Shown here in pieces: positions 1-14,250 of a stretch of DNA of 14,250 nucleotides. Within the stretch, counting starts at the first letter, position 1. Each line of letters begins with the position of its first letter. The stretch is taken from positions 95,358 through 109,607 of IMG/VR virus record IMGVR_UViG_3300032046_004423. One strand, 5' to 3'. The notes beneath the pieces were generated by a model. It had not been told where the DNA came from, did not search any database, and saw nothing but the letters and a program-made list of their open reading frames with translations. The position numbers and the translations under genes are program-made. Origin of the DNA: a virus. Its lineage: Duplodnaviria > Heunggongvirae > Uroviricota > Caudoviricetes.

Positions 1-207
1 TATATGGACACCCTGTATAACATTTGTCACAAACCCTAAACCCATGCGTGCTAGGGTTCTAAGGCTATGCTGTCCCAATCTCATTGGAACTATAGGATAT
101 ACAATAGAGACGCTATGCCCCCTAGCACACAGATGGTTAGCATACTCAAATATAACTCTAATCCCACCATATAACCCAATGCCTGGTGCTATGAATGTTA
201 TTTTCAT
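1..207 (-). CDS. Glycosyltransferase, GT-B fold / family 4-like, N-terminal 69 aa (runs off the window edge; not in ORF track)
   Basis: Manual translation from ATG at 207: MKITFIAPGIGLYGGIRVIFEYANHLCARGHSVSIVYP..., open to position 1. The MKI-x-F...GG-x-RV...AN-x-L-x-x-RGH-x-V pattern is the typical GT4 N-terminus. ATG overlaps the TGA of the upstream ORF (ATGA, 204-207). Confidence 0.85.
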   Translation of the reverse strand, partial: MKITFIAPGIGLYGGIRVIFEYANHLCARGHSVSIVYPIVPMRLGQHSLRTLARMGLGFVTNVIQGVHI

Positions 208-389
208 AGTTTATTAACCTGCTCCTTGAAGTCAGCGAGCATCTGGCTAACATCATTAGTATCCTCAGGATATAGTGCTAGTTCAAGAGTTCCAGTTGAG
301 TATCTTGTTAGGGCTACAAACAATCCTTCTCCAAACTTCATTACTAGGTGACTCCCGCTAACTTTAATCTCTAACTGCCTTTTTGGCAT
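204..389 (-). CDS. Hypothetical protein, 61 aa
   Basis: AGGAGG 7 nt before ATG (inside the radical SAM 3' end); stop coupled to the glycosyltransferase start. Confidence 0.7.
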   Translation of the reverse strand: MPKRQLEIKVSGSHLVMKFGEGLFVALTRYSTGTLELALYPEDTNDVSQMLADFKEQVNKL

Positions 390-1449
390 TCTTACCTCCT
401 ATAAGCATTCGTGGGTGTTTTAGAAAGTATAGTATATAAGGATAGAAGCTAGTCTCAAAGCTCCAGCGAGTACCCCATGCATTTAGGCACCCTTGGCAAT
501 TCCTGACTATTCCTCGAACTCCTACTGCCCTAGGGCTGTGCCAGAGTTCTGTGGGGGAACTTTCTCTAACATTACCCGCTTTAGTATCCCAAAGACTCAG
601 ACAAGGTACAATATCACCATTACACTGCAGCGCACAGAATGTATCCATAGCAAAACAGTGAAATTTGATAGGTTTGCCTGCCAGCCATTTAAGCCATAGT
701 TCACGGAGAATCGGGTACGGTAATGACTCAACAGCTTTAACCATAGAACCATTATTGCTAGCTAAATCCTTGCCTATATTATCGTAGAATGAGGACTGGC
801 TGTACCACTGCACAAGAAGTTCTATCCCCAGACTTTTAGCATATGTCTTGACATCATCCAGATAAGGTAGTGTATAGTTGCTAAGCGTAAAACCAAATAT
901 AGAGGATACCCTTTCATTCCCGTACTTCTTACTCAGAACTATAAGTTTATGAGATAATCCGTCTATCTTTTCAAAATTACCCTTAACGCCCCTTATCAAA
1001 TCATGACCTTCTCCTACTGCATCTAAAGATAATCCAACTCCCAAGTTGATATTATGCTGAATTGCAAACTCAACTGCACTCATCGCTCTATCAGGTAACA
1101 AGCCATTAGTACTTAAGGTTAAGTTAGCATTAGGAAGAGCTTTATGTTCTGCTAGAAGAATCTCATTGAAATCATCCCTGAGGGTAGGTTCACCCCCAGC
1201 ATTTAGTATGCACCTTACATCCCTAAAAAGTGGGTCACTAAGAGCCTCCTCTATTTCCTCAGGAGTTAATTCATTACCAACTGGTTCTTTACGCCATATA
1301 TCACAGTGAATGCAACGGGAGTTACATCTATCAGTAACCCCAAACCACAGCCATCTCGGTCTGAGTGAATAGCCTATAGCTCGCGGGACTAGATTCTTAA
1401 GCCCGTATCCTAAGTCTGTTAAGCCTTGTGTGATATACTTATTCATCAT
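364..1449 (-). CDS. Radical SAM protein with C-terminal SPASM/twitch-like domain
   Basis: CxxxCxxC motif (TDRCNSRCIHCDIW), GGEP and STNG motifs, C-terminal C-x7-C...NGDIVPC...GNV...CQGC Cys cluster. Confidence 0.92.
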   Translation of the reverse strand: MMNKYITQGLTDLGYGLKNLVPRAIGYSLRPRWLWFGVTDRCNSRCIHCDIWRKEPVGNELTPEEIEEALSDPLFRDVRCILNAGGEPTLRDDFNEILLAEHKALPNANLTLSTNGLLPDRAMSAVEFAIQHNINLGVGLSLDAVGEGHDLIRGVKGNFEKIDGLSHKLIVLSKKYGNERVSSIFGFTLSNYTLPYLDDVKTYAKSLGIELLVQWYSQSSFYDNIGKDLASNNGSMVKAVESLPYPILRELWLKWLAGKPIKFHCFAMDTFCALQCNGDIVPCLSLWDTKAGNVRESSPTELWHSPRAVGVRGIVRNCQGCLNAWGTRWSFETSFYPYILYFLKHPRMLIGGKNAKKAVRD

Positions 1450-1453
1450 CCTA

Positions 1454-2014
1454 CTAGTGAACTACTGCCCTTAAAGCTGTAATTGCCTGCTCAATTGTTC
1501 CCAATCTAGATATAACGTAGAACATCATAACCACAGCTACAACACTAGCACCAACAGCTATATACATTAGCATTCTCTCACCCTTACCAACCTTACCTTC
1601 CTCACCTACACCCTTAACTAAGTTAATTAACCACTGAGGGTCAAGTACAGCAGGTAACTCTTTTGATGATAGTGCTCCGGCTGGTGGATTTTGCCAATTA
1701 AGAGGGTCACTCCTTCCTCTCATGACTAGCGAACACCAAACTGTCTGCTGGAAAGATGATAATATCCTAGGCCATCCTATTGGATAGTCTACAAGCTTCA
1801 TTAAGTCATTCTTAAGTACCCACTCATCACTCCCATCCTTAATAAAGTCATCCTTATAAATCTTTAATAACTTAATACTTAGGGGCCTTCCCTTTTCAAT
1901 AATACAGCACAGATGTCTCCCCTTTATCTTTCCTCTTATAGCAAACTGTAGTACTAGAGGAAAAGACATAAATACAAGTATAAGTAAAACTACTGGCATC
2001 ATTACATTGGCCAT
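1454..2014 (-). CDS. Membrane protein, 186 aa, with N- and C-terminal hydrophobic helices
   Basis: GGGAGG 6 nt before ATG; hydrophobic segments VMMPVVLLILVFMSFPLVLQFAI and MLMYIAVGASVVAVVMMFYVI. Confidence 0.75.
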   Translation of the reverse strand: MANVMMPVVLLILVFMSFPLVLQFAIRGKIKGRHLCCIIEKGRPLSIKLLKIYKDDFIKDGSDEWVLKNDLMKLVDYPIGWPRILSSFQQTVWCSLVMRGRSDPLNWQNPPAGALSSKELPAVLDPQWLINLVKGVGEEGKVGKGERMLMYIAVGASVVAVVMMFYVISRLGTIEQAITALRAVVH

Positions 2015-2090
2015 TAAAAACCTCCCTTTTAAATTCCATAACTAAACTCATAGACTAACTCACTTCCTTTATAAACTTCCTAAATGCTAA

Positions 2091-2435
2091 CTATGATAGT
2101 ACCTTCTGGAAGATAGATACGAAGGTCATCACGAGTCCCCATACAAACATAGCCATTAAAGGGGTCCAAATTATCCACTTAACATAAATCCAGCCTCCCT
2201 GTATAAAAGCAAAGTCCCAAATAGCTGCCTTAAATAGTGCTCCAAAGTAGTTTGGAACAAAAGCGATTATATCAAGCATACCCCAAGACTCCTCACTTCC
2301 TACTTGCCTCCAAAGAAGTAAGGTATTAAGCGTACTTTGATGACTTGAACCAATTGTTCCCTGTTCTATAATTAAGCCTAGTATAGTCCCAACTACAAAT
2401 AAGAACACAAAGAAAGCTATATATTTCGGTGGCAT
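2091..2435 (-). CDS. Small integral membrane protein, 114 aa (putative virion membrane protein)
   Basis: AGGAG SD; start overlaps the upstream stop (TAATG); 2-3 hydrophobic helices (YIAFFVFLFVVGTILGLII; WIIWTPLMAMFVWGLVMTFVSIF). Confidence 0.75.
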   Translation of the reverse strand: MPPKYIAFFVFLFVVGTILGLIIEQGTIGSSHQSTLNTLLLWRQVGSEESWGMLDIIAFVPNYFGALFKAAIWDFAFIQGGWIYVKWIIWTPLMAMFVWGLVMTFVSIFQKVLS

Positions 2436-5263
2436 TACATACTCCTTGAGGCAACTAGATATGCACTACTAAATATAGCATAAACTATAGGTATCCACCA
2501 ACCAACACCACCAGTACTAGCCCCCACTGCTAAGCCAATACCAGTAGCTATAACAGCTAATAGAGCACTACCAGTCGCGACTGCTACTCCTACTCCTATC
2601 ATAATAGCCGCAAATATCATTAGAACTTCATATAGTGTATTCGTAGTCCACCCAAGTTCAACAGCTGCAGGCTGAATCAAGTCGAAAGGAAGCCAGCCTA
2701 TAGTAGTAATTTCCTCCTCCTGTTCCCATAAAGTAACATTGCCAGGTAATGGGAGTACAACAGGTAACTCACCCTCTTCAGTTGGTGCTGATATATAAGT
2801 AGTCATACTTTTTAAACCTCCCACTACTATAGTCAGGTTAGAATTTGAACCCCAAGCTATAGTACCATTATTACTACCTACTCTATCAACCAAGGTTGTA
2901 CCACTTATTATCGTATTTGGTTGGAACAGTAATTTTTGCACCCCATTTACAGTAATGCTAGTATAGTTCATATAAGGCATTACATTATTCTCTATCAACT
3001 TCCAGTTAGTAGAGTTAGTAGCAACACTCCAGTTGCCTAGACTAGTACTGCCCCCTTGAGTACCATCTATCCAAATAGAAAGATATCCCCCATGCCCACT
3101 AGCAATTGTACCATTAGCCATTACTTTGATTATATGCTCTCCACCTGAAATCCCTGTAGCAGTAGCATTTATTGTAGTAGCCGTTTCATTACACCCAAAG
3201 TCAAATTCAAGGAGGTCGATGGAACTTGGATATGTAGCAGTATTGTGAAATTTAATCCTTGCTTTAGTCACAGAATATGTCCCCCCCAGACTCTTATCAA
3301 TCCACATACCATCTGTAAAAGTACCATTATAAACATCGTGCCAAGCACTACTATAGTATACATCTAAATCCACAAGGTCTACAAAACCATACGAGTTACT
3401 AGTATAAAATCTCAGCTTACTACAGTTTGTAGCAGTAATAGTTAGATTCAAAAAGCTTCCCCACGAACTCGCAGGGATATCAGGCTCAGCTCCCACTACA
3501 CCGAAAGCATCATCATAAGCATAAGTCTCAAGACCCCATTTACTATCTGCATCTTCATATCCAGTTGGTGAAGTCCAGTTTATAACACCAAGTATTGATG
3601 AAGTTATATTACCAGTACCACTCACATATGTTCTAATAACATTCTGCTTATAACTTAAATTCCCAACAACAGAGGTATTGACATATCCATCCTGCTCAAT
3701 AATAAAGTTATTTGCTAGTCCTAAAGTAGCACTATCTGCAACTGTTACATTACCACCATTACCAGTTATTAAACCAAATGAAGGATTAGCAGGACTATAT
3801 CCTGTCTCAAACCTATACTGCCTCTGCTGATTAGCTATCAAACTAGGAATAAAGACACCAATCTTATCATCAGCTACCATATATAATCCTTCAGTTGTCC
3901 CCTCAAACATCCTGGTATCTAAACAAGTACTACTCAAGTAACCAAAATCTATAGCTTGCGCGGTACCGAAAGGAACCAAAGCTGGAACACCAATTCTATC
4001 AGTAACCGATATATCAATTATGGTTATTTCAGACCTATAGGCCCCAGAACTATATATTACTGCCTCAGTAAGAAGCTGAACAGTAGTTCCATATCCCGTA
4101 CCTGCTGAGTTAATAGCATAAGCCCTAACACGGTAACTCGTATCTGGACTTAAACTAGCTATAACTTTAGTATAAGAACCGTTGCCAAAACTACCGCTAT
4201 CATAAGCTATGCTACTAGAAGTAGTAGGATCCCCCGAGGTACCCTCCATATAGCAGAAACCTCTACTAGTACAATTCTCACCACCAGTATCAGTGATATT
4301 TCCATTACCTGTAGCATAGGTTGTTCCTATACCAGATACCTCCTGAGTAGTAACTGTAGGTATTACTATCCCCGGTGTCTCATAACTTACTATAACTAAA
4401 CCGGAACCACCAGCCATACCAACCTGTAGTTCTCCACCACCACCCCCACCCCCACCTGTATTTACTGTTCCCGCTACTGCTGCAATTGGTCCACCACCAT
4501 CCTTACCTGCTCCTGCTCCCCCACCACCTAGACCACCAGGAGCTACAGCTGTAATTAAATTGTGGGTACTACCTCCACCACCACCAGCATAGTAAACAGA
4601 TGAACCAGAAATCGAACAAGCCGTCCCATTACCTCCCTTACCTCCCCCTGCTGCACCACCATTAGCACCAACTACACTAGCTCCACCTCCACCACCTGCA
4701 CAATGGTAGGTAGCGCCAGAGCCAGCCCCACCATCGTATCCCTGCCTCGGAGAAATATAGTCAGCATCCCCTCCAGCCCCAGATTCTTGCCCTCCACCTC
4801 CACCAGAACCCCCAGGAGATCCTGCATGGTTAATATAGTATCCTCCTCCACCACCCCCGATTGCAGTTAGTATATCAAATACAGAATTACTGCCATTAGT
4901 TCCTTGACCTGAACTTGCACCAGCACCTCCATCCCCAACTGTAACAGTTAATTCCGCTTCAGGTATAACAGTATAAGTCGCATTATAAATAAAACCTCCT
5001 GCACCACCTCCACCACCCTCGCCTGTAGTATCATTACCACCACCACCACCCCCACCTGCTACTACTAAAACTTTTACTGAAGTTACTCCAATAGGTACTG
5101 TCCATTTACCCCCAACAGGAGTAGAGTTAAAAGCTACAATAGTTTCTCCCGAAGCAAAAGTAGAACTGCTAGGAATAGCTAGTAACGTTCCAACTAGCAT
5201 ACCTACTATAAGTAAAGTTGGTAGTAGATACCCTACAGGTCTATTTAGCTTTTTAAACATCAA
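2435..5263 (-). CDS. Large secreted, C-terminally membrane-anchored Gly-rich adhesin/spike-like protein, 942 aa
   Basis: Signal-peptide-like N-terminus (...AIPSSSTFA|SG); Gly-rich domain about aa 42-294 (VKVLVVAGGGGGG...GGSGLVIVSY); FN3-like domain about aa 302-399 (PTVTT...ATGNGNITDTGG...RGFCY...YRVRAYAINSAGTGYG); DUF2341-like stretch (YRSEITI...LDTRM); beta-rich S/T/N region; C-terminal TM helices. GGGGAGG SD. Confidence 0.8.
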   Translation of the reverse strand: MMFKKLNRPVGYLLPTLLIVGMLVGTLLAIPSSSTFASGETIVAFNSTPVGGKWTVPIGVTSVKVLVVAGGGGGGGNDTTGEGGGGGAGGFIYNATYTVIPEAELTVTVGDGGAGASSGQGTNGSNSVFDILTAIGGGGGGYYINHAGSPGGSGGGGGQESGAGGDADYISPRQGYDGGAGSGATYHCAGGGGGASVVGANGGAAGGGKGGNGTACSISGSSVYYAGGGGGSTHNLITAVAPGGLGGGGAGAGKDGGGPIAAVAGTVNTGGGGGGGGELQVGMAGGSGLVIVSYETPGIVIPTVTTQEVSGIGTTYATGNGNITDTGGENCTSRGFCYMEGTSGDPTTSSSIAYDSGSFGNGSYTKVIASLSPDTSYRVRAYAINSAGTGYGTTVQLLTEAVIYSSGAYRSEITIIDISVTDRIGVPALVPFGTAQAIDFGYLSSTCLDTRMFEGTTEGLYMVADDKIGVFIPSLIANQQRQYRFETGYSPANPSFGLITGNGGNVTVADSATLGLANNFIIEQDGYVNTSVVGNLSYKQNVIRTYVSGTGNITSSILGVINWTSPTGYEDADSKWGLETYAYDDAFGVVGAEPDIPASSWGSFLNLTITATNCSKLRFYTSNSYGFVDLVDLDVYYSSAWHDVYNGTFTDGMWIDKSLGGTYSVTKARIKFHNTATYPSSIDLLEFDFGCNETATTINATATGISGGEHIIKVMANGTIASGHGGYLSIWIDGTQGGSTSLGNWSVATNSTNWKLIENNVMPYMNYTSITVNGVQKLLFQPNTIISGTTLVDRVGSNNGTIAWGSNSNLTIVVGGLKSMTTYISAPTEEGELPVVLPLPGNVTLWEQEEEITTIGWLPFDLIQPAAVELGWTTNTLYEVLMIFAAIMIGVGVAVATGSALLAVIATGIGLAVGASTGGVGWWIPIVYAIFSSAYLVASRSM

Positions 5264-6282
5264 CCAAACCTCCCCAGTATGAATGTAACACTAAACATTA
5301 GTACAGCCATAAAAGCAGCAATAAAGGTAATAGTCAAGGATAGTATCCCGATAATATTCCCAACAAATAAGAATGGTATACTTACAGCAATAGCTACTGG
5401 TACCGAGTGAGTAGCTATGAATATCCTACCAGCTAGAATAAAAAATAGGATAGACAAACCAAGCCCCCCTACTACACTACCCATCCCATTCTTTCCAGTA
5501 ACCCATACTCCCAAGCCCTCAAGTGCAGTTGCTAATCTAGCCCCCTCTCTACTTGTCAATGTATCCTGGTAAGTATTATTATATACCGGATCCGTATACT
5601 CAGGGTAAGTAGAAGCTACCTGAAAGATATCTGGGCATATACTATCTAGTCCAGGAATTGCCTCCTTGAACTTTACCATCCCAACAGAATTAAGCTTATC
5701 ACCCGAAGAGAGTAAAGTTATATTTCCCCAAGCATCCTCAAGTGATCCAGCCAGCACAATACACCAGTCAGCTAAATATAGTCTCGTTTCAGAAACAGAA
5801 CCCCCCTCAAGCCAGTTACTAGCTGTTAAGGTTACAGTTCTCATATTAGCACCCTCAGTTAAAGTAGGGAAATACGAGGGATTACCTACAACCCTAACTT
5901 TTAGCTCGTCATCTAACTCATAACCAAAACTAACTACCTGAGCTGCAGTTAGATACACCGAAATAAAGTTATACTGGTAATAATTAAGGGGCATATCAGG
6001 CCCCTTAATAGTATTATTCCAAATGCCAACTAGGAACGTATCCGAAGGATCCTCCCCAGGGTCAACAGTATAATTTAGGTCATACTCAACGACAAACAGC
6101 ATATCGCCACTTTCCCATAGTCCCCTGTAAGCTTTAACAGACTCAATATATATACTGTTAGGATTTCCTATAGTAGCATAAGCTGGTGTAGCTGCAAATA
6201 GTACTACTACCAGAACTACTAAAGGTAGTAGTTTATAGAGCAAATTCCTTACTCTCAAGTTCAACTCCAGACTGTCTAACAT
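5260..6282 (-). CDS. Secreted/membrane protein, 340 aa, with signal peptide and about three C-terminal TM helices
   Basis: KLLPLVVLVVVLFAATPAYA| resembles a signal peptidase I site; C-terminal hydrophobic helices; stop overlaps the start of the 942-aa gene. Exact start uncertain (overlaps the upstream gene by 50 nt). Confidence 0.78.
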   Translation of the reverse strand: MLDSLELNLRVRNLLYKLLPLVVLVVVLFAATPAYATIGNPNSIYIESVKAYRGLWESGDMLFVVEYDLNYTVDPGEDPSDTFLVGIWNNTIKGPDMPLNYYQYNFISVYLTAAQVVSFGYELDDELKVRVVGNPSYFPTLTEGANMRTVTLTASNWLEGGSVSETRLYLADWCIVLAGSLEDAWGNITLLSSGDKLNSVGMVKFKEAIPGLDSICPDIFQVASTYPEYTDPVYNNTYQDTLTSREGARLATALEGLGVWVTGKNGMGSVVGGLGLSILFFILAGRIFIATHSVPVAIAVSIPFLFVGNIIGILSLTITFIAAFMAVLMFSVTFILGRFG

Positions 6283-6556
6283 AACCCCTTCCAGTTAAAG
6301 TATCGAGTGCCCCTCTTATCTGCTCACTTGTTAGACCAGTAGCTACCGGTAAACTATCAAGAGAAGTATAACCCTCAATTACTGCATCATACACAATTCT
6401 CTCCTCAGGGGTCCATCCAGCAGTTAGAATTCTCCTAAACATACTACCATACTGTGTAGGAGTAAGCGACTGTACAAATCCAGGTACTCTCATAAAGTTA
6501 TTTAACTGACGTGGGTCAACTCTCGAGAACTCATCACCTTTAGCAACATACGGCAT
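6233..6556 (-). CDS. Winged-helix protein, paralog 4 (107 aa)
   Basis: AGGAGG SD; C-terminal EERIVYDAVIEGYTSLDSLPVATGLTSEQIRGALDTLTGRGYV, a wHTH-like pattern shared with three other genes in the window. Confidence 0.8.
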   Translation of the reverse strand: MPYVAKGDEFSRVDPRQLNNFMRVPGFVQSLTPTQYGSMFRRILTAGWTPEERIVYDAVIEGYTSLDSLPVATGLTSEQIRGALDTLTGRGYVRQSGVELESKEFAL

Positions 6557-6578
6557 TTTAACTAATTACCTCCTATAT

Positions 6579-7115
6579 TTACATTAACCACTTTCTTTTC
6601 CTTTTCCTTCTCTCTTCTGCGTCTACAGTAGTATCCCCAGTAGTACTAACTAGTCCCTTTTTCTTTAAGTTTTCAATAGCAATATCAATTTGGTCCCTAG
6701 TTAAACCAGTAACCTGCGTCATATCCTCATAAGTATTGTGGCCCTCAATTATTGCATCAAGGACTTTATATTCATCCGTCGCCTTAGATAACCAGCTGCC
6801 ATCCTCCAACTTAATATTTTCACCCCTAAACTCATTGAAACCCTCAATGCCTAGTCTGCTTAACATCTCCTGCTCGTCAGGAGGTAGAGCATTGTACTCT
6901 TCTCCTTTAACAAACTCCTCATTGGGTAGTACAACATTTCCTTTAGCCACCCACTCAGTTTTCCCTCTCTCTTTACCTATATATCCACCCCAACTCTGAG
7001 CTGCCTCAGGACTAATATCCTCCCTAACTGCTGTACTAGTTAGAAAGGTTTCTAATTGCCTCGGATCAATACCTTTTACCACAAACTTCACCTCCTTATC
7101 TTCCTTACTTACCAT
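6579..7115 (-). CDS. Winged-helix protein, paralog 3 (178 aa) with basic C-tail
   Basis: DEYKVLDAIIEGHNTYEDMTQVTGLTRDQIDIAIENLKKKGLV; ends EERRKRKRKWLM; shares the DPRQL motif with the 107-aa neighbour. Confidence 0.8.
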   Translation of the reverse strand: MVSKEDKEVKFVVKGIDPRQLETFLTSTAVREDISPEAAQSWGGYIGKERGKTEWVAKGNVVLPNEEFVKGEEYNALPPDEQEMLSRLGIEGFNEFRGENIKLEDGSWLSKATDEYKVLDAIIEGHNTYEDMTQVTGLTRDQIDIAIENLKKKGLVSTTGDTTVDAEERRKRKRKWLM

Positions 7116-7507: not shown

Positions 7508-7524
7508 CTATCTACTCTTTCAAC

Positions 7525-7794
7525 TTATAGATCTTCTGGCCTAGTTGGATTATAAATCCAATCAGGTTGACTTTCATACAACTCAGGATAAATTCTAAGC
7601 ATCAGCTTTATAAGATCCTCCTCCTGGCCAGAAAGCATTATTACCTCGTGATCTGGAATATCTATCTTACCTAGCTTCTCTACTAAACTCCTTGCTGCCT
7701 TCTCATATCCTCTAACTGGATGCCCCTTAACAAATTCTCTAAGAATAGGAAGAGCAGCCCTTTTTTCCTCTTTAAATACTGTCCAAAAGGCCAC
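7525..7794 (-). CDS. Hypothetical protein, 89 aa
   Basis: GTG start directly after the stop of a 32-aa basic ORF, GAGG 9 nt upstream. Confidence 0.65.
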   Translation of the reverse strand: MAFWTVFKEEKRAALPILREFVKGHPVRGYEKAARSLVEKLGKIDIPDHEVIMLSGQEEDLIKLMLRIYPELYESQPDWIYNPTRPEDL

Positions 7795-7893
7795 CTATCT
7801 GGACCTCAAGGACCTCAAAATACTTCTATGTTTAGCTTGGGCTCTTCTAGTGCTAGGTATCCTACTAAGTTTACTACGTTGCTTTCTCATCAT
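7795..7893 (-). CDS. Putative 32-aa arginine-rich, protamine-like peptide (not in ORF track)
   Basis: Manual translation MMRKQRSKLSRIPSTRRAQAKHRSILRSLRSR*: 9 R, 3 K, no acidic residues. Fills the gap between two genes; TAG abuts the next GTG; only a weak AGGA SD. Confidence 0.5.
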   Translation of the reverse strand: MMRKQRSKLSRIPSTRRAQAKHRSILRSLRSR

Positions 7894-7906
7894 AATCCTA
7901 ATGCTC

Positions 7907-8182
7907 TCACGGTAGAGTTAGTGTACTCTGCGTTTCCTCCGAAGCAGCACACTTAGCGTGAACTAGTCCCCCCACTCTAGGCTGAAAAATTATATCCCTA
8001 ATAGTAATATCTTTATCACAGATAGGACAGGTCCCAATATACTCCCTACACTTTAAGCAAGTATACTCAGTCCCAAAAATGGCACGCAAAAATCTCTCCT
8101 CAGGAGTACCTCCCTCAACATAACTTGCCCTACTGCACTTAGAGCAAATAGTTCTTATCTTTCCTTTAGGCCAACCTCTCAT
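7907..8182 (-). CDS. Zinc-finger protein, 91 aa (two predicted Zn sites)
   Basis: CSKC...CLKC...CPIC...HAKC; start overlaps the upstream stop (ATGA). Confidence 0.75.
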   Translation of the reverse strand: MRGWPKGKIRTICSKCSRASYVEGGTPEERFLRAIFGTEYTCLKCREYIGTCPICDKDITIRDIIFQPRVGGLVHAKCAASEETQSTLTLP

Positions 8183-8433
8183 ACTTTATGAACTGCCCTT
8201 CTCACTCCTTTATCTAAGGACTTATAACGCCTTATTAACTGAGCTTTTACCATCTGCGTTGCCCTACTAGAATTACTTGTAGGTAACTCAAAAATTTCAG
8301 CCTTTTGACTCAAGTTAGCATCATCCATATAGTGCTGAGCTAGCAACTCAGAAGAAAAAGACCTGCCTCCTATAATGACAGGTCTTAAACTACCATCCTT
8401 TGCCCTAGTATAGTCAACTACCCAGTAGTACAT
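8179..8433 (-). CDS. Hypothetical protein, 84 aa
   Basis: ATG at 8433 overlaps the TGA of the hidden 45-aa ORF (TGATG), so it is preferred to the track's GTG at 8436. Confidence 0.7.
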   Translation of the reverse strand: MYYWVVDYTRAKDGSLRPVIIGGRSFSSELLAQHYMDDANLSQKAEIFELPTSNSSRATQMVKAQLIRRYKSLDKGVRRAVHKV

Positions 8434-8570
8434 CACTTTACTATAACTACTTTACCAGGTTTAGTAGAGTCAATTAGCATCAATATCCTACTACAACGGC
8501 AAAAACCAATGCTTGACCAAAAAGCTACCAAACTACCACAGTCTGGACACTTAAGAATTACAAGACTCAT
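8433..8570 (-). CDS. 45-aa Cys-rich Zn-ribbon-like protein (not in ORF track)
   Basis: Manual translation MSLVILKCPDCGSLVAFWSSIGFCRCSRILMLIDSTKPGKVVIVK*; AGGAGG directly upstream; CPDC...CRC; stop coupled to the next ATG. Confidence 0.75.
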   Translation of the reverse strand: MSLVILKCPDCGSLVAFWSSIGFCRCSRILMLIDSTKPGKVVIVK

Positions 8571-8579
8571 ACCTTCCTC

Positions 8580-11500
8580 CTACTTTACTAGTTTAACTCT
8601 CCTTGAAGTTTGCCTACCCAACTTTATACCCTTTACAGTTGGAGTTCTTAATACCTCCCTAGCCCCATATCTTACTGCTTTTTTACCCGCAAGCTGTATT
8701 TTCTTTTTCCTCATACTTAAAGGCTCAGGCATATTTAGTATCAAACCAGGTACCACCCATTTTGCTCCACTTAATACCTTACCAATACCACCCCCACTAT
8801 AGCCTCCACCCATACCAGGAAATCCTAGAGGAGGTGGGAATGGTAAAGGTAGTCTTGGTAAGCCATAACTAGGTAGGACCGGTTCAGGTTGAGTTATACC
8901 AATTTTAGGTGGAGATATAACAGGAGGTGTAGTCGTAAAGCCAACTACTACTGGAAAAGGTTCTGGAACCACCATAGGCTTAGGTATTACAGGTTCCTCA
9001 GTTAGGGCCTCTGGCACAATAGGAATAAGTAACTCAGATTCAGGCATTAGAGGATGGACTGTTACAGTCCCAGTAATAAGAGGTGTATAAATTCTAGGAA
9101 GAGTTACAACAGGTGTAAAAATTTCAGGTTCATGTTCTGGTTTAGCTACTCCAGGAATAACAAAAGGCTTACTAGGAATCTTTTCAGGCATAATAGGACT
9201 AAAAGGAGTTTTTATCCCAGGCTTAACTCTAGTAGGTATAGTAACTCCTATTCTAGCTGGAATAGTAAGTCTTGGGAGAGTTTTAGTCCAATCCATAGTT
9301 CTAGTTCCAACTCCAAGTTCTCCTCCCAGACCTCCCCAACTATATAAAGGACTACCATATCCTCCTCCTTCTAGAGGATAACTGAACTCCCCACTATACA
9401 GAACATCAGGACCTCTATATAAACCCCCACCCCCTTTTGTAGAACCACCACCAAAGGTCATACCACCTAGCCCAGGCATAGGTCCCCGCTCAAAAGGATA
9501 CCACCATTCTGGGATAGGTGGGCCCGACTTAGGCCCCCCACCTTTTCCATACCATTCCTCAACAGGCCACATAGAAACAGTTCCCTGAGCATAGGCTGTA
9601 GGTCCTTCTATAGGATAACTAGACTTAAGGAATTTATACTCAAGTGGGGATAGAACCTCCCCATATCTAGTAAAAGCAACTTCTTTAGGAGCACCCAACG
9701 ACTCTGTAAGACTAACAGGTTGAGGTCTATAAGCTGCAACAGGTTTAAAAGGAAATAACTCACTAGAAGGCCTATAGATATCACCCGAAAGCTCCTCAGC
9801 AGTAGGTAACTTTATCTCTTCCGTATAACGAGGCTTCTCTCCCTTACTAAGTTTTACCAGCTTTGCCCCGAATCCAGTAACTCTAGTATCACTCCTAAGA
9901 ACAGTACCAATAGTCTCTGAGATTGGTACTATCCTTCCTCCAAGAGGAGTAATAGCTTCCCCATAACTAATCTTTCCTTTTGCTACTCCCAATCCCTCAG
10001 CTACTAACTCAGGACTAACTTTTGCTCCTATTCCTTTACTAGCCCAGAACTTCTCAATTCCTCTTAAACCAACTGCTCTAGGTCCAAAGAGACTTCCTTG
10101 TAGTCCAGGAAGTAAGGTAAATCCTACAGTACCTATCTTATGTCCTATACCTGGCTGCTTCCATGTTAATACACCAGCAGCAGTTACTGGCCCAAAATAA
10201 GGAAATAGTGTAGTAAGAGACTTAGCCCCATACTGGGGATATAACTGTGAGGCAACCGTAGAAGGAGCAAGTATCTGATACATACCCCCTACTAGAAACT
10301 TAGGTACTGTAGGCCACTCCTGCATCTTCTCTAAAGGAGGCATAAGATACCTCTCCGTTCCTTTTCCCAAAGCACCTACTATGCTAGGCTGATACTGCAT
10401 CTCACCCAAAACACTCTCCCTAATACTTGCCATCACTTGTGGGTCATAATCTAAACTAGCCTGGGCTAAAAACTCATCCTTTCCGATATCTAATTCTAAT
10501 CCTTGGGCAGCAGCTTCTCTAGCCTCCCGGTCATATAGAGAAGACGCATCACTCATATACTCCTTATAGCCTTGACTATACTGAGAACTACCCTTATACT
10601 GCTCCCATGCCTTAGCAATATTACTCTCAATAGGTTCCGGTTCAGATAAGGCACCCAGTGCAGTCGCACTACCAATAGTCGCAACTGTAGGGATAGTAAG
10701 TACAGTTGTAGTTGCTTTTACCCCAGTTAAGAATCCAGATAATGGTCCAGCAAACCTCCCAAGACTTGGAGAAATTTCAATAGGTGCCCTTCCCCATTTC
10801 AGGAATGATGATACTGGCCCAAGTGCTTTAACTAAAACTGGAGCACCCATAGCCTCACCAGTACCAAGTGCAAGCCCTCCAGCAAATATCATAGGCTGAA
10901 TAGGAGACTCCTTCCACCATGCCTTAGTCTGTAACATATTGGGACTCGGACTATAACCTCCACCCCAACTACCAGGAGGAGAAATACCCCAAAGAGCATT
11001 TCTTACTTTTTCTAACCAAGTAAATCCAGGTTTAGAACCATAATACTCATCTGCGTGAATCACCGGTAAACCAAACTGACCTGCCTGGGATAAACCAGCA
11101 AGAGAAAAGAGATTAACAGGATGACCTCCAGCTAACTCTATCTGCTTAGTAGGAGCCATAGTTCCAGACCTATATTCTAAGGCTTTATCAACATCCTCCT
11201 GTCTAAAACCAAAACTGACTAACTGAGTTGGGGTTAACTCACTTAATGCTCCAACTAAATTATAACCCCCTCCACTAGTCTTATAAGATTCAATCTTAGC
11301 TTCCTCAGGAGTTACTATCTGCCAACCTCCCTGCGTATTCCTATAAGTAATACCACCTTGGTTAAGATACTCCACACCCCCACTCTCAAAAATTCCCTCA
11401 GGTCCCTTAACCAAATAACCCGTAGTAGGTCCAGTTATAGTAATAGGAGTTTCCCCACCATGTTCCTGGTAGTAACTAAGAAAAGCTTGCTTTTCAGCCT

Positions 11501-11741
11501 CAGTAGGCTCACCAGGTACTACTACAGTAGGAGGTTTATTACTAGTACCTCCACCCAATCCCGAACTAGGAATTACTTGAATCCCATGAGCTTTTGCAAA
11601 TGCAAGAACCTGTGCTGGTCCCCAACCACCACTTGTTACTAGACTACCCCCTCCAGTAACTGGATGGTACTCAATTCCATGGGCTTTTGCAAATGAAACT
11701 ACTTGGGCTTGAGTCCAACCACCACTAGTTACTTGTGCCAT
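8580..11741 (-). CDS. Large 1053-aa low-complexity protein (Gly-rich N-terminus, central hydrophobic segments, Pro-rich region, basic C-tail); putative internal virion protein
   Basis: AGGAGG SD with long (13-nt) spacer; uninterrupted ORF; no catalytic motif recognised. Confidence 0.8.
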   Translation of the reverse strand: MAQVTSGGWTQAQVVSFAKAHGIEYHPVTGGGSLVTSGGWGPAQVLAFAKAHGIQVIPSSGLGGGTSNKPPTVVVPGEPTEAEKQAFLSYYQEHGGETPITITGPTTGYLVKGPEGIFESGGVEYLNQGGITYRNTQGGWQIVTPEEAKIESYKTSGGGYNLVGALSELTPTQLVSFGFRQEDVDKALEYRSGTMAPTKQIELAGGHPVNLFSLAGLSQAGQFGLPVIHADEYYGSKPGFTWLEKVRNALWGISPPGSWGGGYSPSPNMLQTKAWWKESPIQPMIFAGGLALGTGEAMGAPVLVKALGPVSSFLKWGRAPIEISPSLGRFAGPLSGFLTGVKATTTVLTIPTVATIGSATALGALSEPEPIESNIAKAWEQYKGSSQYSQGYKEYMSDASSLYDREAREAAAQGLELDIGKDEFLAQASLDYDPQVMASIRESVLGEMQYQPSIVGALGKGTERYLMPPLEKMQEWPTVPKFLVGGMYQILAPSTVASQLYPQYGAKSLTTLFPYFGPVTAAGVLTWKQPGIGHKIGTVGFTLLPGLQGSLFGPRAVGLRGIEKFWASKGIGAKVSPELVAEGLGVAKGKISYGEAITPLGGRIVPISETIGTVLRSDTRVTGFGAKLVKLSKGEKPRYTEEIKLPTAEELSGDIYRPSSELFPFKPVAAYRPQPVSLTESLGAPKEVAFTRYGEVLSPLEYKFLKSSYPIEGPTAYAQGTVSMWPVEEWYGKGGGPKSGPPIPEWWYPFERGPMPGLGGMTFGGGSTKGGGGLYRGPDVLYSGEFSYPLEGGGYGSPLYSWGGLGGELGVGTRTMDWTKTLPRLTIPARIGVTIPTRVKPGIKTPFSPIMPEKIPSKPFVIPGVAKPEHEPEIFTPVVTLPRIYTPLITGTVTVHPLMPESELLIPIVPEALTEEPVIPKPMVVPEPFPVVVGFTTTPPVISPPKIGITQPEPVLPSYGLPRLPLPFPPPLGFPGMGGGYSGGGIGKVLSGAKWVVPGLILNMPEPLSMRKKKIQLAGKKAVRYGAREVLRTPTVKGIKLGRQTSRRVKLVK
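11568..11732 (-). repeat. Two-copy direct repeat (93-nt period) at the 5' end of the 1053-aa gene
   Basis: VTSGGWTQAQVVSFAKAHGIEYHP (aa 4-27) vs VTSGGWGPAQVLAFAKAHGIQVIP (aa 35-58); DNA shares gcttttgcaaatg and caaccaccact. Confidence 0.9.
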
Positions 11742-11758
11742 TTACGACTATTAACCTC

Positions 11759-12310
11759 CTATTTTAGATATCTAATAAACCCTTTCTTAACTAACTGAGA
11801 AAGTGCTCTTCCTACTTCCTCACCTGTTAAACCAGTAGCTATCTCTAACTGACTAGAATCAGTATATCCATCAACGATTGCTAAATAAACAGCTTTTTCC
11901 TCAGTAGGCATATTAGCTGCAGCCCCTCCCTGAAATGCCCTACTAACATCCTCTTCACCCCACTCATCTCCAGGTTGTAATACTGTTCCTAAGTAACTAC
12001 CTCCCCCAGCTACTGCCCTTTCCTCCTGTGTCATATTTCTCCACTCTTCTCTCCCCGCTATCTGTGTCTGCTCTGTTCTATAAAACGGGCTTGCCTCCAT
12101 CATATATGCTCTATTCGCGCCAGCAACCGCTGCACTCACCTCACAAGGTGATAGTCCAGCTGCTTCTGCTTGACTCTTTGCAGAACTAACTCCACTCTGC
12201 CAGTTCTGATAGTCCTGTTTCGCTGCATTTATACTTTGTTGGGCCTTTGTAGGGTTACTACCCCCAACAGGTCCCCCACCCAAACTAGAAGCAATATTTC
12301 CCCATGCCAT
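11759..12310 (-). CDS. Winged-helix protein, paralog 2 (183 aa), low-complexity N-terminus
   Basis: C-terminal MPTEEKAVYLAIVDGYTDSSQLEIATGLTGEEVGRALSQLVKKGFI. Confidence 0.8.
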   Translation of the reverse strand: MAWGNIASSLGGGPVGGSNPTKAQQSINAAKQDYQNWQSGVSSAKSQAEAAGLSPCEVSAAVAGANRAYMMEASPFYRTEQTQIAGREEWRNMTQEERAVAGGGSYLGTVLQPGDEWGEEDVSRAFQGGAAANMPTEEKAVYLAIVDGYTDSSQLEIATGLTGEEVGRALSQLVKKGFIRYLK

Positions 12311-12314
12311 AATA

Positions 12315-12890
12315 CTACGCCTTTATATAACCTTTACTAAGTAACCAGTGAAAAGCCCTACCTATCTCCTCATTTGTCAATCCTGTAGCTACTCCCAAAC
12401 TATCAGGACTAGTATAACCCTCCTGTATTGCCTGATAAACAGATTTCTCATTAGCAGGCATACCAGAAGGTATACCAACAGGTGTATCAGGCATCCGAGA
12501 TGCCTGACGGTTAGGCATAGTTCTAATCTTTAAATAGTTACCAGCTATTCCTCCTCCTCCCCCAAACTTTGGTAACAAACCACGCATAGACCCAGTTGAG
12601 ATTGCTACCCCTCCAGATATATTCCTAGCTGGTACTAACCTCAGCTTTGCCCCCTCCGACAAACCAGGTATTTTTTTACTACCAGCACTCCACTCATTAC
12701 TGGGCCTTCTTGCCTCTACCTCAGTAGGTTTTTCTGGGTGTGGAAAAGTCTTTACCCAACTAGGATTTTCTCCCCCCGGGCCAACAAAACCCCCACCTCC
12801 TGGTTTAGAATTTGAAGTTGGTGTTTGTGCTCCCAATCCATACCGTGGGTCCATATCATGAGCAAGTACTGCAGAAAGTTTACTTACCAT
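12315..12890 (-). CDS. Winged-helix protein, paralog 1 (191 aa), Gly/Pro-rich N-terminus
   Basis: AGGAG SD; C-terminal MPANEKSVYQAIQEGYTSPDSLGVATGLTNEEIGRAFHWLLSKGYI. Confidence 0.8.
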   Translation of the reverse strand: MVSKLSAVLAHDMDPRYGLGAQTPTSNSKPGGGGFVGPGGENPSWVKTFPHPEKPTEVEARRPSNEWSAGSKKIPGLSEGAKLRLVPARNISGGVAISTGSMRGLLPKFGGGGGIAGNYLKIRTMPNRQASRMPDTPVGIPSGMPANEKSVYQAIQEGYTSPDSLGVATGLTNEEIGRAFHWLLSKGYIKA

Positions 12891-12927
12891 TTCTAGTATC
12901 CTCCTATAACAAAATTTTTAATAGTAG

Positions 12928-12955
12928 AATGGGGAGTATATTTCAACTCCCCATT
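12928..12955 (-). terminator. Stem-loop after the capsid-like gene (terminator or mRNA-stabilising hairpin)
   Basis: Perfect 10-bp inverted repeat AATGGGGAGT (12928-12937) / ACTCCCCATT (12946-12955) with 8-nt loop, 12 nt past the TAA. No clean U-tract follows. Confidence 0.55.
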
Positions 12956-12967
12956 TACTGACTAGTG

Positions 12968-13133
12968 TTAACCCTGGCCTCCTATCCATGCTACTGCCCC
13001 TAATAGGATAACTGCGACGAAAACGTATGGCAGAACACCAACTAGAGCTGCTAAACCAGTAGGACTAGTAATAGCTGCAGTAGTCTGCAGGATGACCGGA
13101 ACCAGACTTACACCTACCACGATGGAAATCATG
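12968..13133 (-). CDS. Exon 2 of an intron-split small hydrophobic protein; putative spindle-shaped-virus-type major capsid protein (not in ORF track)
   Basis: C + ATG ATT TCC...GGT TAA encodes MISIVVGVSLVPVILQTTAAITSPTGLAALVGVLPYVFVAVILLGAVAWIGGQG*: two hydrophobic helices with a polar T/S/P/G linker. It begins right after the predicted intron omega-G. Confidence 0.75.
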
Positions 13134-13322
13134 CAACCTTATCCCAGGTTTTCCTGAGGGTTGGACTTTATCTTCACCCATTACTGGGTGTCCCGTGTAA
13201 AGTCTCTACACTTGCCTGTCTTTCAACTGCTAGCTCGGTATTACCATAAGTATCACTACCCTTAGGCTTCACCGACTTAGCGGGATTTATTACCTCTCAA
13301 TTACTCAAGAGGAGCACCACTT

Positions 13323-14072
13323 CTAGTATAAACCAAAGGCTTCTAGTTTTGCTAGAAACTTAGAACTATCAAGCCCAGTGTGCCTTCTAAGTCCAAGCTC
13401 ACATTCCCGAAGCACCAGGCATCTATAACCAGCCTCCCCATATAGATACATTCTGGCTACTTCCTCCAACTCATCCCTATGCCAGTAATCACCAAAAAGT
13501 TCAATGCAATCCTTTACACCGTCAGTTCTATAGAAATCAGGTACCTTTCCTGCTACTACTAGCTCACCCTCATTGAACTTCCACTTACCTGGACTTACAA
13601 AGTCTAGCAAATCCTTTAGCCAAGATTCGGGATAGTTAGGATGTAAACTACCAGCCCCAGACCTCATTGCAGCTATCTGGCTATTCTTAAACTCTGGATC
13701 TGACCACAGGTTATTATGAACCCTACTTAGCCTTTCCCTATAACCAGGCTGACTCCACATTTCCTTAGCAGTCCTGGAGAAATCCTCTGAGGACCTTGTA
13801 GATGGAACACCAAACTTCGCTTCTGAGATTGCATCTCCCCAAGTTATGTCTCTGCCTGTAAGAGCCTTAGATATAGCCTCATTTCTCTCAGCCGCAAACT
13901 CCTGCCAAGAACCCATAGACTCAAGAACGAGGTCAGAATAGATACTAGCATCTGGGAACATTGCCCGGTACTCAAGGACAGTACCTATTCCATGAGCAGA
14001 CTGTAGATGCGTACCAGTAATCTGTTCATAACTCAGACCACAAAGCCTGCACTCTACTAAGTACTTTCCCAA
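13323..14072 (-). CDS. Intron-encoded putative homing endonuclease, Vsr-like/EDxHD-type PD-(D/E)xK nuclease with N-terminal C2H2 Zn finger
   Basis: TTG start with GGGGG SD; CRLC...HLQSAH...EYRAMFP N-terminus; helical repeats (ISKALTG/ISEAKFG; WSQPGYR/WSDPEFK); C-terminal PNYPE...VPDF...IELFGDYWH...LVLRECE; lies between P1 and the ribozyme core. Confidence 0.82.
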   Translation of the reverse strand: MGKYLVECRLCGLSYEQITGTHLQSAHGIGTVLEYRAMFPDASIYSDLVLESMGSWQEFAAERNEAISKALTGRDITWGDAISEAKFGVPSTRSSEDFSRTAKEMWSQPGYRERLSRVHNNLWSDPEFKNSQIAAMRSGAGSLHPNYPESWLKDLLDFVSPGKWKFNEGELVVAGKVPDFYRTDGVKDCIELFGDYWHRDELEEVARMYLYGEAGYRCLVLRECELGLRRHTGLDSSKFLAKLEAFGLY

Positions 14073-14095
14073 CCATTCCCCCTAGATTGTAACCT

Positions 14096-14106
14096 GTAGC
14101 AGTCAT
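14096..14106 (-). other. Predicted internal guide sequence (IGS) of the intron
   Basis: Minus-strand AUGACUGCUAC is the exact 11-nt complement of the ligated exons GUAGCAGU|CAU. Confidence 0.65.
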
Positions 14107-14127
14107 TAAAAGTCGATGCCGATAAGT

Positions 14128-14141
14128 ACTGCTACTAACAC
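14128..14141 (-). CDS. Predicted exon 1 of the capsid-like gene (GTG TTA GTA GCA GT)
   Basis: GGGAGG SD 9 nt upstream of GTG; joins exon 2 in frame (GT|C = Val). The alternative junction GGC AT|C at 14116 is also in frame. Confidence 0.55.
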
Positions 14142-14159
14142 ATGCTAAAACCTCCCTTT

Positions 14160-14215
14160 AACATTACCGAGTAATATAACTAGTACTCTTCCTATGCAAC
14201 AAGTATAACATAGCA
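14160..14215 (-). promoter_or_regulatory. Candidate promoter region upstream of the capsid-like gene
   Basis: AT-rich non-coding region. Contains an extended -10-like TGTTATACT (14202-14210), a TTATAT box near 14174-14179 that could equally be an archaeal TATA box, and a short palindrome ATTAC-CGA-GTAAT (14163-14175). Confidence 0.3.
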
Positions 14216-14250
14216 AATCATTCAGTGCCATATTCATATTATTCACATCT

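Follow-up and report, generated by a model that had tools for sequence, protein, structure and literature searches.

The stretch analysed here, referred to as the window, comprises 14,250 nucleotides (nt) of viral DNA, positions 95,358-109,607 of IMG/VR record IMGVR_UViG_3300032046_004423 (contig G000; 109,607 bp, classed as 'linear', CheckV completeness 82%), and its right end is the end of the contig. It is headed by a small gene for a predicted two-helix capsid protein, interrupted by a group I intron, and holds 21 open reading frames (ORFs), all on the minus strand and tightly packed from position 14141 down to 1. A sequence-only reading of the window had described one packed cluster on one strand and had taken it for the structural module of a probable spindle-shaped virus or provirus; the layout was confirmed, all long ORFs being on the minus strand. 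The sequence is contained in whole or in part in three sediment metagenomes, with no RNA run listed for it. Deposited phage and archaeal-virus genomes gave no DNA match to the window and no protein match to its 340- and 1053-amino acid (aa) proteins; for its 942-aa adhesin candidate, one short, uninformative match to an unannotated record was obtained in the same collection.

The interrupted gene of a probable capsid protein

The exon-intron junction was fixed by aligning the intron-less small genes of a relative (L008) to the window. Relatives fetched via the 340-aa protein carry the small gene without intron, often as a tandem pair; in L008, tandem intron-less capsid genes of 68 and 72 aa read MLVAVLIGIMISIVVGVSLVP...VLPYVFVAVILLGAVAWIGGQG. 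Removal of the intron from the window gene restores the reading frame and gives a capsid ORF of 63 aa. The Shine-Dalgarno site, the start codon and the first nine codons are exon 1 territory. Because the unspliced exon-1 frame meets a stop three codons inside the intron (GAC TTT TAA), and the sole other start in the capsid frame, an ATG at 13132, has no good ribosome site, splicing is required for the full 63-aa protein.

The catalytic core was matched by Rfam RF00028 at 13339-13142 of the minus strand (52.3 bits, gathering threshold 50; E 4.7e-11), the only group I intron that Rfam found on the contig. Pairings were read by eye, with no computed fold. In P1, exon GGCAU and intron CG pair with the guide UGGUGCU (13319-13313), with a U.G pair at the splice site (U14116 with G13317); in P10, CAU of exon 2 can pair with GUG just upstream. 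The sequence-only reading had suspected a group I intron in an mRNA, and the Rfam score, the U at the end of the exon, the terminal G at 13134 and the restored frame agree with it: the element is a group I intron, predicted from its sequence to be self-splicing.

Between the 5' splice site and the guide lies an ORF of 249 codons. A group I intron at the identical site in another relative (L063, JGI 3300036982, 340-560; 57.6 bits) carries no ORF and has its guide 7 nt past the splice site, which shows the 249-aa ORF to be an insertion in the P1 loop. Its N-terminus resembles a Ros/MucR-like C2H2 finger (CRLCG...HLQSAHG...EYR) and its C-terminus carries a Vsr/DUF559-like motif (IELFGDYWHRD). Language-model neighbours in the Atlas (score 0.95) are viral clusters in which a minority of members have ROS_MUCR, DUF559 or Vsr; no profile match was obtained in Pfam, NCBIfam or PDB. 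For the EDxHD-type nuclease proposed earlier, the evidence consists of the motif and the DUF559/Vsr-bearing neighbours, and an EDxHD/Vsr-like homing endonuclease is retained as a lead.

Further introns were found among the relatives. One capsid gene (L064, ENA ERZ27256847, 1-678) is interrupted twice by group I introns: the first occupies the Ile9 site (60-229; 47.1 bits) and the second lies 7 nt before the stop (393-584; 85.4 bits). When the second is removed, the C-terminus changes from ...GGSQ* to the family consensus ...GGQG* (WIGGQG). Near-identical capsid alleles without intron exist as well (for example P0045), and since introns are present or absent among near-identical alleles, they behave as mobile elements.

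Two side observations concern the same gene family. Capsid genes start at unusual codons, namely ATT (L030:2651-2653), ACG (L031:289-291), TTG (L064:9-11) and GTG (window 14139-14141), all 7-10 nt past a GGAGG site and all followed by LVAVLIGI; because of these starts, gene callers truncate the capsid proteins to 'MISIVVG...'. In a distant relative with a 106.8-kb contig (L011:664-2032, JGI 3300049911), a 279-aa NUMOD3 endonuclease gene lies between ORFs of 89 and 51 aa at the head of the structural block. From its layout this region may be another interrupted gene; no Rfam intron was found in it at threshold.

Predicted capsid fold, probable tail anchor and other window genes

The spliced 63-aa product consists of two hydrophobic helices and a short variable loop. 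In an AlphaFold2 (AF2) model (28 sequences), the helices span residues 2-33 and 39-65 (pLDDT 87.8). The family is large, with 164 clusters at 90% identity and, at 50%, 220 representatives; the sequence hardly varies in either helix, and N-[ILVM]-T-Y is frequent in the variable loop. A 28-member profile, compared with 177,635 distinct PDB sequences, gave 7xdi_A as its sole match (E 2.8e-4, 54 of 67 positions), and a single-sequence query again returned only this chain (E 0.049). Chain A of 7XDI is VP1 of Sulfolobus spindle-shaped virus 19 (SSV19; PMC9351363). The same chain ranked first among PDB matches when the model was searched with Foldseek (template modelling (TM) score 0.72/0.71, root-mean-square deviation (rmsd) 2.7 Å over 64 columns, 28% identity, probability 1.00), the next-best match having a probability of 0.13. 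Near full-length matches to Pfam His1_capsid were found in 20 of the 28 members (best E 1.9e-4), all below the 27-bit cut-off, and the Atlas neighbours of the protein include clusters with His1_capsid and VP1_VP3. The capsid signals are independent, specific and mutually consistent, though each is modest; judged by sequence profile and predicted fold, the 63-aa alpha-hairpin probably falls within the superfamily that includes fusellovirus VP1 and the His1 capsid protein. The small two-helix capsid-like gene singled out by the sequence-only reading, and the structural similarity to spindle-virus capsid proteins that it anticipated, are thereby supported.

In the divergent branch represented by G403 (12929-13576), the capsid-like hairpin forms the N-terminal third of a 215-aa protein, and many database relatives (P0156-P0298) are 100-300 aa long with an N-terminal hairpin. 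Such long proteins could be hairpin fusions or minor capsid proteins.

The 340-aa protein is one of a family with 34 members and no assigned function (model pLDDT 84). In an exhaustive alignment of the model to 48,161 representative PDB chains, 7xdi_F ranked first, matching residues 268-337 (Z 9.7, rmsd 2.0 Å, 70 residues); the matched part, residues 1164-1233 of SSV19 VP4, is the capsid-anchoring bundle. In SSV19, this VP4 anchor and the same domain in the adaptor B210, which consists of a beta-sandwich and the bundle, form a ring for stacking the VP1 strands (PMC9351363). As modelled, the 340-aa protein has the B210 architecture, with a Z-shaped three-helix anchor of the VP4/B210 type. A pattern scan of GTDB for this family gave no match.

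Downstream of it, the 942-aa adhesin or tailspike candidate matched PF21722 (Gly_rich_2; 1.2e-27), phrog_2295 (3e-45) and also phrog_863 ('tail fiber assembly'). The C-termini of the adhesin and the 340-aa protein share no sequence similarity. The C-terminal domains of the four winged helix-turn-helix (wHTH) proteins are true paralogues, with identities of 30-48% across about 55 residues; the 191-aa member is a putative DNA-binding virion or assembly protein. At the position of the 1053-aa protein, relatives have a large, poorly conserved protein of 759-1767 aa, possibly an internal or scaffold protein. A MIR394 microRNA match within the 1053-aa gene (window 8766-8862; 24 bits, E 0.41) was rejected as due to chance. 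All features are listed in Table 1.

Table 1. Annotated features of the window, from the capsid gene end downwards (window positions)
Feature	Position	Strand	Remarks
Upstream motif ATATGAATATGGCA	14226..14239	-	exactly two copies on the 110-kb contig
TG-T-TATACT box	14202..14210	-	16-17 nt past the motif; readable as extended -10 or TATA-like
MCP (major capsid protein) exon 1	14116..14141	-	GTG start 9 nt past GGGAGG; through 2nd base of Ile9 codon (M-L-V-A-V-L-I-G-I); ends in U
Group I intron, 982 nt	13134..14115	-	ends in G; junction from intron-less alleles; predicted self-splicing
Intron-encoded 249-aa ORF	13323..14072	-	in the P1 loop; putative homing endonuclease
Intron catalytic core P2-P9	13142..13339	-	Rfam RF00028
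MCP exon 2	12968..13133	-	third base of Ile9 to stop
GC-rich hairpin GGGGAGT-N8-ACTCCCC	12931..12952	-	directly past MCP stop; hairpin at same place in L008
191-aa protein, wHTH paralogue 1	12315..12890	-	Gly-rich N-terminal part, C-terminal winged-helix-like domain
183-aa protein, wHTH paralogue 2	11759..12310	-	
1053-aa protein, no known family	8580..11741	-	duplicated N-terminal motif, Pro-rich region, basic C-terminal tail
Six small ORFs (45, 85, 91, 89, 67, 64 aa)	7109..8570	-	45-aa and 91-aa products with CxxC pairs, zinc-ribbon-like
178-aa protein, wHTH paralogue 3	6579..7115	-	weak sub-cut-off matches: wHTH-PRTase_assc, DUF2250, TFIIE_alpha
107-aa protein, wHTH paralogue 4	6233..6556	-	
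340-aa adaptor-like protein	5260..6282	-	signal peptide, beta-sandwich (43-151), C-terminal hydrophobic three-helix bundle (268-339)
942-aa secreted adhesin/tailspike candidate	2435..5263	-	signal peptide, Gly_rich_2 (53-294), Fn3/Ig-like regions, 25 N-X-S/T sequons, C-terminal hydrophobic anchor
114-aa multi-pass membrane protein	2091..2435	-	conserved in relatives (G402, L008)
186-aa protein	1454..2014	-	N- and C-terminal membrane helices; conserved in relatives
Radical SAM/SPASM enzyme	364..1449	-	opens glycosylation/modification block running beyond the window
61-aa ORF	204..389	-	
GT4 glycosyltransferase, first 69 of 358 codons	1..207	-	full gene contig 94488-95564

The second copy of ATATGAATATGGCA (contig 76114-76127) stands ahead of a gene for a 122-aa Lys/Arg-rich protein (contig 75671-76039), and TTATA(C/A) comes 16-17 nt after both copies. 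Its presence ahead of both the capsid gene and the gene for the 122-aa basic protein suggests co-regulated late genes, and the motif is probably a late-promoter element that the two share. The extended -10-like box of the sequence-only reading is present as a TG-extended TATACT; the promoter geometry fits either domain, archaea or bacteria, and scans for sigma-70 promoters and intrinsic terminators gave no enrichment over shuffles. The hairpin directly past the MCP stop is a possible attenuator or terminator.

The genome beyond the window and its relatives

The contig carries about 214 densely spaced ORFs, arranged by strand into three blocks, and has a strong purine skew; no tRNA genes were found on its 109,607 bp. 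Pfam scans took in contig ORFs of at least 80 aa and all 21 window ORFs. They returned a set of replication genes: a protein-primed family B polymerase (pPolB; DNA_pol_B_2, 1.1e-36), a fusion of uracil-DNA glycosylase (UDG) and family A polymerase (PolA), an ATP-dependent ligase, SNF2- and UvrD-type helicases, and Rad52-type and RusA proteins. A full preQ0/preQ1 (7-deazaguanine) set was also found (FolE, QueD, QueE, QueC, QueF), together with Ro60/TROVE, NADAR, an intein, AdoMet decarboxylase, methyltransferases and several glycosyltransferases.

Terminase, portal and HK97 families were absent from these scans, and six-frame searches for PF05065 (Phage_capsid) and PF03354 (TerL_ATPase) were negative in the contig and in two relatives (G402, 96% complete, and G403), with the positive controls found. 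No integrase family turned up in the scans of the contig, no endolysin family was detected, and no ribosomal, tRNA or housekeeping genes were seen across the 110 kb. The claim that the cluster lacks head-tail phage genes was thus upheld, and the 95 kb of flanking sequence holds neither terminase, portal or HK97 genes nor ordinary chromosomal genes. The provirus option of the sequence-only reading was not supported: because the contig is a free viral one, the scans found no integrase family and a relative has inverted terminal repeats, the window is read as part of a virus and not a provirus.

Two relatives were followed most closely. G402 (IMG/VR UViG_3300017971_002799) is 87.8 kb long (CheckV 96%), and G403 is a 37-kb fragment. 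Each shares about 28-33 genes with the contig and has the UDG-PolA fusion; G402 also has pPolB, the Zot-like ATPase described below and structural genes. The same core is present on 44-48 kb contigs, which recur across several samples, and other relatives measure 97-113 kb, the overall range being 44 to 113 kb. Along about 31 kb read of a 44-kb relative, no integrase family and no host genes were recorded, and the scanned ends of G402 likewise held no integrase family.

Nucleotides 1-96 of G402 are the exact reverse complement of 87586-87681, and the right end continues for 112 nt to a G-rich run. G402 therefore has an inverted terminal repeat (ITR) of at least 96 nt, truncated on one side by assembly, where IMG/VR lists no end repeats. 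No terminal repeat was seen on the G000 contig, itself incomplete. The distance from capsid gene to terminus is about 6.7 kb in G402, and the G000 contig ends 110 nt upstream of its capsid gene; by this comparison it probably lacks the terminal piece that G402 has beyond the capsid gene. Given the encoded pPolB and the ITR of G402, replication is read as linear and protein-primed. The genome is linear and about 88-113 kb long, with a sister group of 44-48 kb that has the same core.

The family A polymerase and the pPolB, an unusual pairing, are encoded at contig 65294-67627 and 68604-70274 (L004:11294-13624, 14604-16271). The former has a fused N-terminal family-4 UDG domain and a 3'-5' exonuclease. 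Every relative examined retains the UDG-PolA fusion; pPolB is likewise conserved in G402 and among the 44-kb genomes. Among deposited viruses, the nearest PolA proteins are those of Bacillus and Brevundimonas phages, 27-29% identical.

The block at about 70-95 kb of the contig encodes a methyltransferase, an 881-aa Fn3 glycoprotein with 40 sequons, further secreted proteins, the 122-aa very basic protein, a GT2-methyltransferase fusion and two multi-pass membrane proteins without assignment. It also holds a Zot/FtsK-type P-loop ATPase (contig 86704-87372; PF05707, 25.9 bits against a cut-off of 20.3), which is kept in G402 and the 44-kb relatives.

Some further observations were made along these genomes. 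A 615-aa gene at contig 56071-57918 has intein (Hint) domains and counterparts of 226-237 aa in G402 and G403, the longer form being an intein-containing allele on a contig that bears a mobile intron as well. Five small paralogues of 142-194 aa (contig 77864-85115) with a HE(L/A)(G/A)H...GH metallopeptidase-like motif are interleaved with glycosyltransferase and AdoMet decarboxylase genes. In some of the 97-113 kb relatives, an IS607-type resolvase and TnpB are inserted in the structural module (L015:7167-9515; L017:6563-8334), and tRNA genes lie beside such insertions (L015:9538-9601, L016:6939-7009, L017:8355-8418).

Particle, affinities and host

The window is likely to be a core virion module of the fusellovirus/His1 type that belongs to a large, uncultivated virus with double-stranded DNA (dsDNA). 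The spindle-type virion module of the sequence-only reading found support in the VP1 profile and fold matches, the His1_capsid matches and the VP4/B210-type anchor, from which we infer the shape. Hairpin subunits would pack side by side into a malleable and probably lemon-shaped shell, in which the 340-aa protein and the 942-aa adhesin would be anchored as a glycosylated tail or adsorption device. The four wHTH paralogues and the basic 122-aa protein could condense or guide the DNA, and the Zot/FtsK-like ATPase may drive assembly or packaging. Finally, the radical SAM, glycosyltransferase and methyltransferase products would decorate N-X-T sites of the surface proteins.

Several results weigh against this assignment. 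All similarity scores of the capsid protein are modest and its sequence is hydrophobic and compositionally biased; the His1_capsid matches stay below the gathering cut-off; the Foldseek E-value of the 7xdi_A match is only 0.08, because the protein is short; and PHROGs gave no match for the capsid protein, including to the family that holds SSV1 VP1. For the anchor, a Z of 9.7 is within the range reachable by chance helical packing, and Foldseek on the 340-aa model returned generic beta-sandwich matches, with no 7xdi chain among the 50 listed matches. Known viruses of this capsid type have genomes of 14-29 kb, and no particle of the present virus has been observed.

With the Fuselloviridae (SSV1, SSV19), the lineage shares a hydrophobic two-helix hairpin capsid protein of 60-85 aa (their VP1 being the sole PDB profile match and the top fold match), a neighbouring secreted protein with a beta-sandwich and a C-terminal three-helix bundle as in B210/VP4, N-X-T-rich surface proteins, and a large adhesin or tailspike gene in the same block. 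Fuselloviral genomes, however, are circular, 15-24 kb and integrase-bearing, whereas the genome described here is linear, 88-113 kb long and equipped with pPolB, PolA and an ITR. An SSV-type integrase, VP2 and DnaA-like or other fuselloviral core genes were not detected; a group I intron interrupts the capsid gene, and identity to VP1 is only about 28%.

The Halspiviridae (His1) and Thaspiviridae (NSV1) have the same capsid superfamily, as indicated by the sub-threshold His1_capsid matches, and also genomes that are linear, bear inverted terminal repeats and encode a protein-primed PolB (PMC8491892). Their genomes are 14-29 kb against 44-113 kb here; the present lineage adds UDG-PolA, the 7-deazaguanine pathway, Ro60, helicases and a ligase, and the hosts and the anoxic-sediment habitat differ. 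Membership in the Fuselloviridae or in the Halspiviridae/Thaspiviridae fails on genome size, topology and gene content.

Nearest in organisation, compared by description only, are the candidate large spindle viruses of ANME-1. These likewise come from sediment metagenomes and have hydrophobic alpha-helical capsid proteins, sometimes in two copies, structural and enzymatic arms, QueCDEF, asparagine-synthase-type genes and two size classes with one core. They differ in being reported with an RNA-primed PolB, ThyX and partly circular genomes; the present lineage has pPolB and PolA, ThyX was not seen, and a relative bears an ITR.

Group I introns with homing endonucleases are familiar from bacteriophages, such as those in T4 td and nrdB, in the SPO1 polymerase gene and the EDxHD family of Bacillus phage 0305phi8-36. 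As there, an essential, highly expressed viral gene is interrupted, the endonuclease ORF is optional, and alleles with and without the intron coexist. The present introns differ in lying in the capsid gene of a non-tailed VP1-type virus, with the ORF in the P1 loop, a second site 7 nt before the stop in a relative, and an endonuclease family without profile support.

The host signals conflict, as the sequence-only reading had noted, and the division between archaeal signals (capsid, sequons, Bathyarchaeia bin) and bacterial ones (introns, PolA, lipoboxes) persisted after testing. The sequon enrichment it had reported was confirmed for secreted proteins after correction for composition. In the 942-aa protein, 25 N-X-S/T sites were observed against 9.0 expected (z 6.1), and the 40 of the 881-aa glycoprotein correspond to z 7.3; the rest of the proteome has 114 against 108 expected, the enrichment being confined to secreted proteins. 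NXT outnumbers NXS by 64 to 19, and D/E occurs at -2 in 2 of 83. This pattern departs from the bacterial sequon of the Campylobacter type; it is typical of N-glycosylation in archaea and resembles the NXT sites of SSV19 tail proteins (PMC9351363). The capsid family had a single occurrence across the genomes of 185,579 GTDB species: a syntenic contig of 15 kb, placed by binning with a Bathyarchaeia metagenome-assembled genome (MAG).

An archaeon of anoxic sediments is thus favoured as host with moderate confidence, Bathyarchaeia being the sole concrete lead. A number of findings count against an archaeal host. Sequon enrichment need not report a host AglB, because the virus has its own glycosylation genes; co-binning of one 15-kb contig is weak host evidence; the capsid profile gave one strong match (the known one) and two weak ones in 401 sampled Bathyarchaeia genomes; and no significant spacer-like DNA match of the window was found in these genomes or in the Bathyarchaeia MAG. 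Strong TAAGGAGGT ribosome sites are present, and lipobox-like signal peptides (LLTGC, LVGC, ITAC) were noted at contig 89779-90315 and 78285-79220 and at G402 83851-84426; as sequence motifs, these hint at lipoprotein processing by the host, as in bacteria or some Euryarchaeota. To these are added genes of bacterial leaning (UDG-PolA, RusA, Rad52-type, UvrD, Ro60/TROVE) and the group I introns, together with a Ros/MucR-Vsr-like endonuclease that has its nearest clusters among tailed viruses.

Two further candidates for host evidence were set aside. A PolA search of the 401 Bathyarchaeia genomes was uninformative, returning mostly host UDG through the fused N-terminal domain and few PolA genes, 29% identical. 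GerE/LuxR regulators of G402 were rejected as a bacterial marker, since the family is also found in archaeal controls and in the Bathyarchaeia MAG.

A bacterial host is possible, though doubtful. By analogy, the same virion module might belong to a virus of a peptidoglycan-free bacterium, for example of Dehalococcoidia or other Chloroflexota, as a large relative of the IME1 dsDNA elements of Dehalococcoides; we hold this tentatively. IME1 offers a precedent, known to us by description, in which dsDNA elements of the anoxic subsurface without head-tail genes encode a pI/Zot-like ATPase and small hydrophobic proteins like SSV1 VP1 (VP1_SSV1-like), with filamentous particles associated (preprint 10.64898/2026.09.15.751708). 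In the present module, the Zot match is above its cut-off, and a Zot-type ATPase beside small hydrophobic coat-like proteins is a feature shared with Inoviridae-like and IME1-like filamentous elements, whose small (<30 kb), circular and often integrative genome it does not share. Capsid-gene group I introns at two sites across relatives, the phage-type endonuclease, the phage-like replication and repair genes (with a Rad52/Sak-type protein, and NADAR in addition to those named above), the PolA similarity to Bacillus and Brevundimonas phages, though at just 27-29% identity, the lipobox signal peptides and the mostly bacterial Atlas neighbours of the radical SAM enzyme all point the same way, and the lack of a detected endolysin is compatible with a wall-less host and with an archaeon alike. 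Against this stand the sole cellular-genome match, which is to the Bathyarchaeia MAG, and the N-X-T enrichment without D/E at -2. Kinship with IME1 is further opposed by the capsid proteins, which match no PHROG family, not even the SSV1 VP1 family matched by IME1 proteins, and by the elements themselves, which are 21-28 kb, integrative, circular and restricted to Chloroflexota, whereas the present genomes are linear, 44-113 kb, with pPolB and no integrase family in the Pfam scans.

A capsid protein homologous to VP1/His1 could also build a particle other than a spindle, be it filamentous, rod-like, ovoid or pleomorphic-enveloped, and this we consider rather unlikely. The VP1 fold is that of the rod-shaped APBV1 (PMC9351363), and IME1 elements with VP1-like proteins co-occur with filaments (preprint 10.64898/2026.09.15.751708). 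A Zot/pI-like ATPase is a hallmark of filamentous phage assembly, and the genome exceeds those of known VP1/His1-type viruses 4-7 fold, so that about 100 kb may need another geometry. The 340-aa protein, however, has the tail-to-capsid anchoring bundle of the spindle-shaped SSV19, spindle capsids scale by strand sliding, large spindle viruses are predicted for ANME-1, and no Adnaviria-type capsid protein was detected.

That the contig is instead a tailed phage (Caudoviricetes) with head, portal and terminase genes too divergent to be found, the small protein being a holin or other membrane protein, is highly improbable. The Gly_rich_2 and phrog_863 matches of the 942-aa protein, the phage-like replication genes and the automatic Atlas label 'Uroviricota' of neighbouring clusters would agree with it; yet HK97, terminase and portal families were absent from the scans of contig ORFs of at least 80 aa and of all window ORFs, the six-frame searches of this contig and the 96%-complete relative were negative too, and the small protein comes first in its module, has a strong ribosome site, is often tandem-duplicated and matches VP1/His1 specifically. 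Least probable is that the stretch stems from a sediment microbe, as a cell-surface or glycosylation locus of its chromosome or as a decayed provirus. One 13-kb relative bears the IMG/VR label 'provirus', and glycosyltransferases and secreted glycoproteins are typical of cell-envelope loci too, but the 110 kb lack ribosomal, tRNA and housekeeping genes, contigs of 44-113 kb with recurring lengths carry this gene set in many samples, the family encodes pPolB, a relative has an ITR, and the contig labelled 'provirus' has viral replication genes throughout with no integrase family recorded on the approximately 31 kb read.

If the window is indeed a fusellovirus/His1-type virion module, it extends the scaling range of this capsid type. 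The cultivated hairpin viruses of the VP1/His1 type are all archaeal with genomes of 14-29 kb; in this widespread sediment lineage, the same design of capsid and tail anchor goes with linear genomes of 44-113 kb that encode two DNA polymerases, a pathway for DNA hypermodification and a glycosylation kit of the virus's own. Should the host be a bacterium, spindle-type capsids would not be confined to archaea. It is conceivable, if improbable, that this lineage infects bacteria, for example peptidoglycan-free Chloroflexota of sediments, and is the first to do so among large-genome viruses whose capsid and tail anchor are of the fusellovirus/His1 type; an 'archaea-only' capsid architecture would then cross the domain boundary, and exchange with co-infecting bacteriophages would account for the introns and phage-type endonucleases.

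In the literature, we found no paper describing group I introns in archaeal viruses or in capsid genes of the VP1 type. If the host is archaeal, these introns may be the first for an archaeal virus, and they would lie in its most highly expressed gene, with two of them inside the 200-nt capsid gene of one relative. With alleles that have no intron, an ORF-less intron, an ORF-bearing intron or two introns, the capsid family forms a compact natural intron-homing system.

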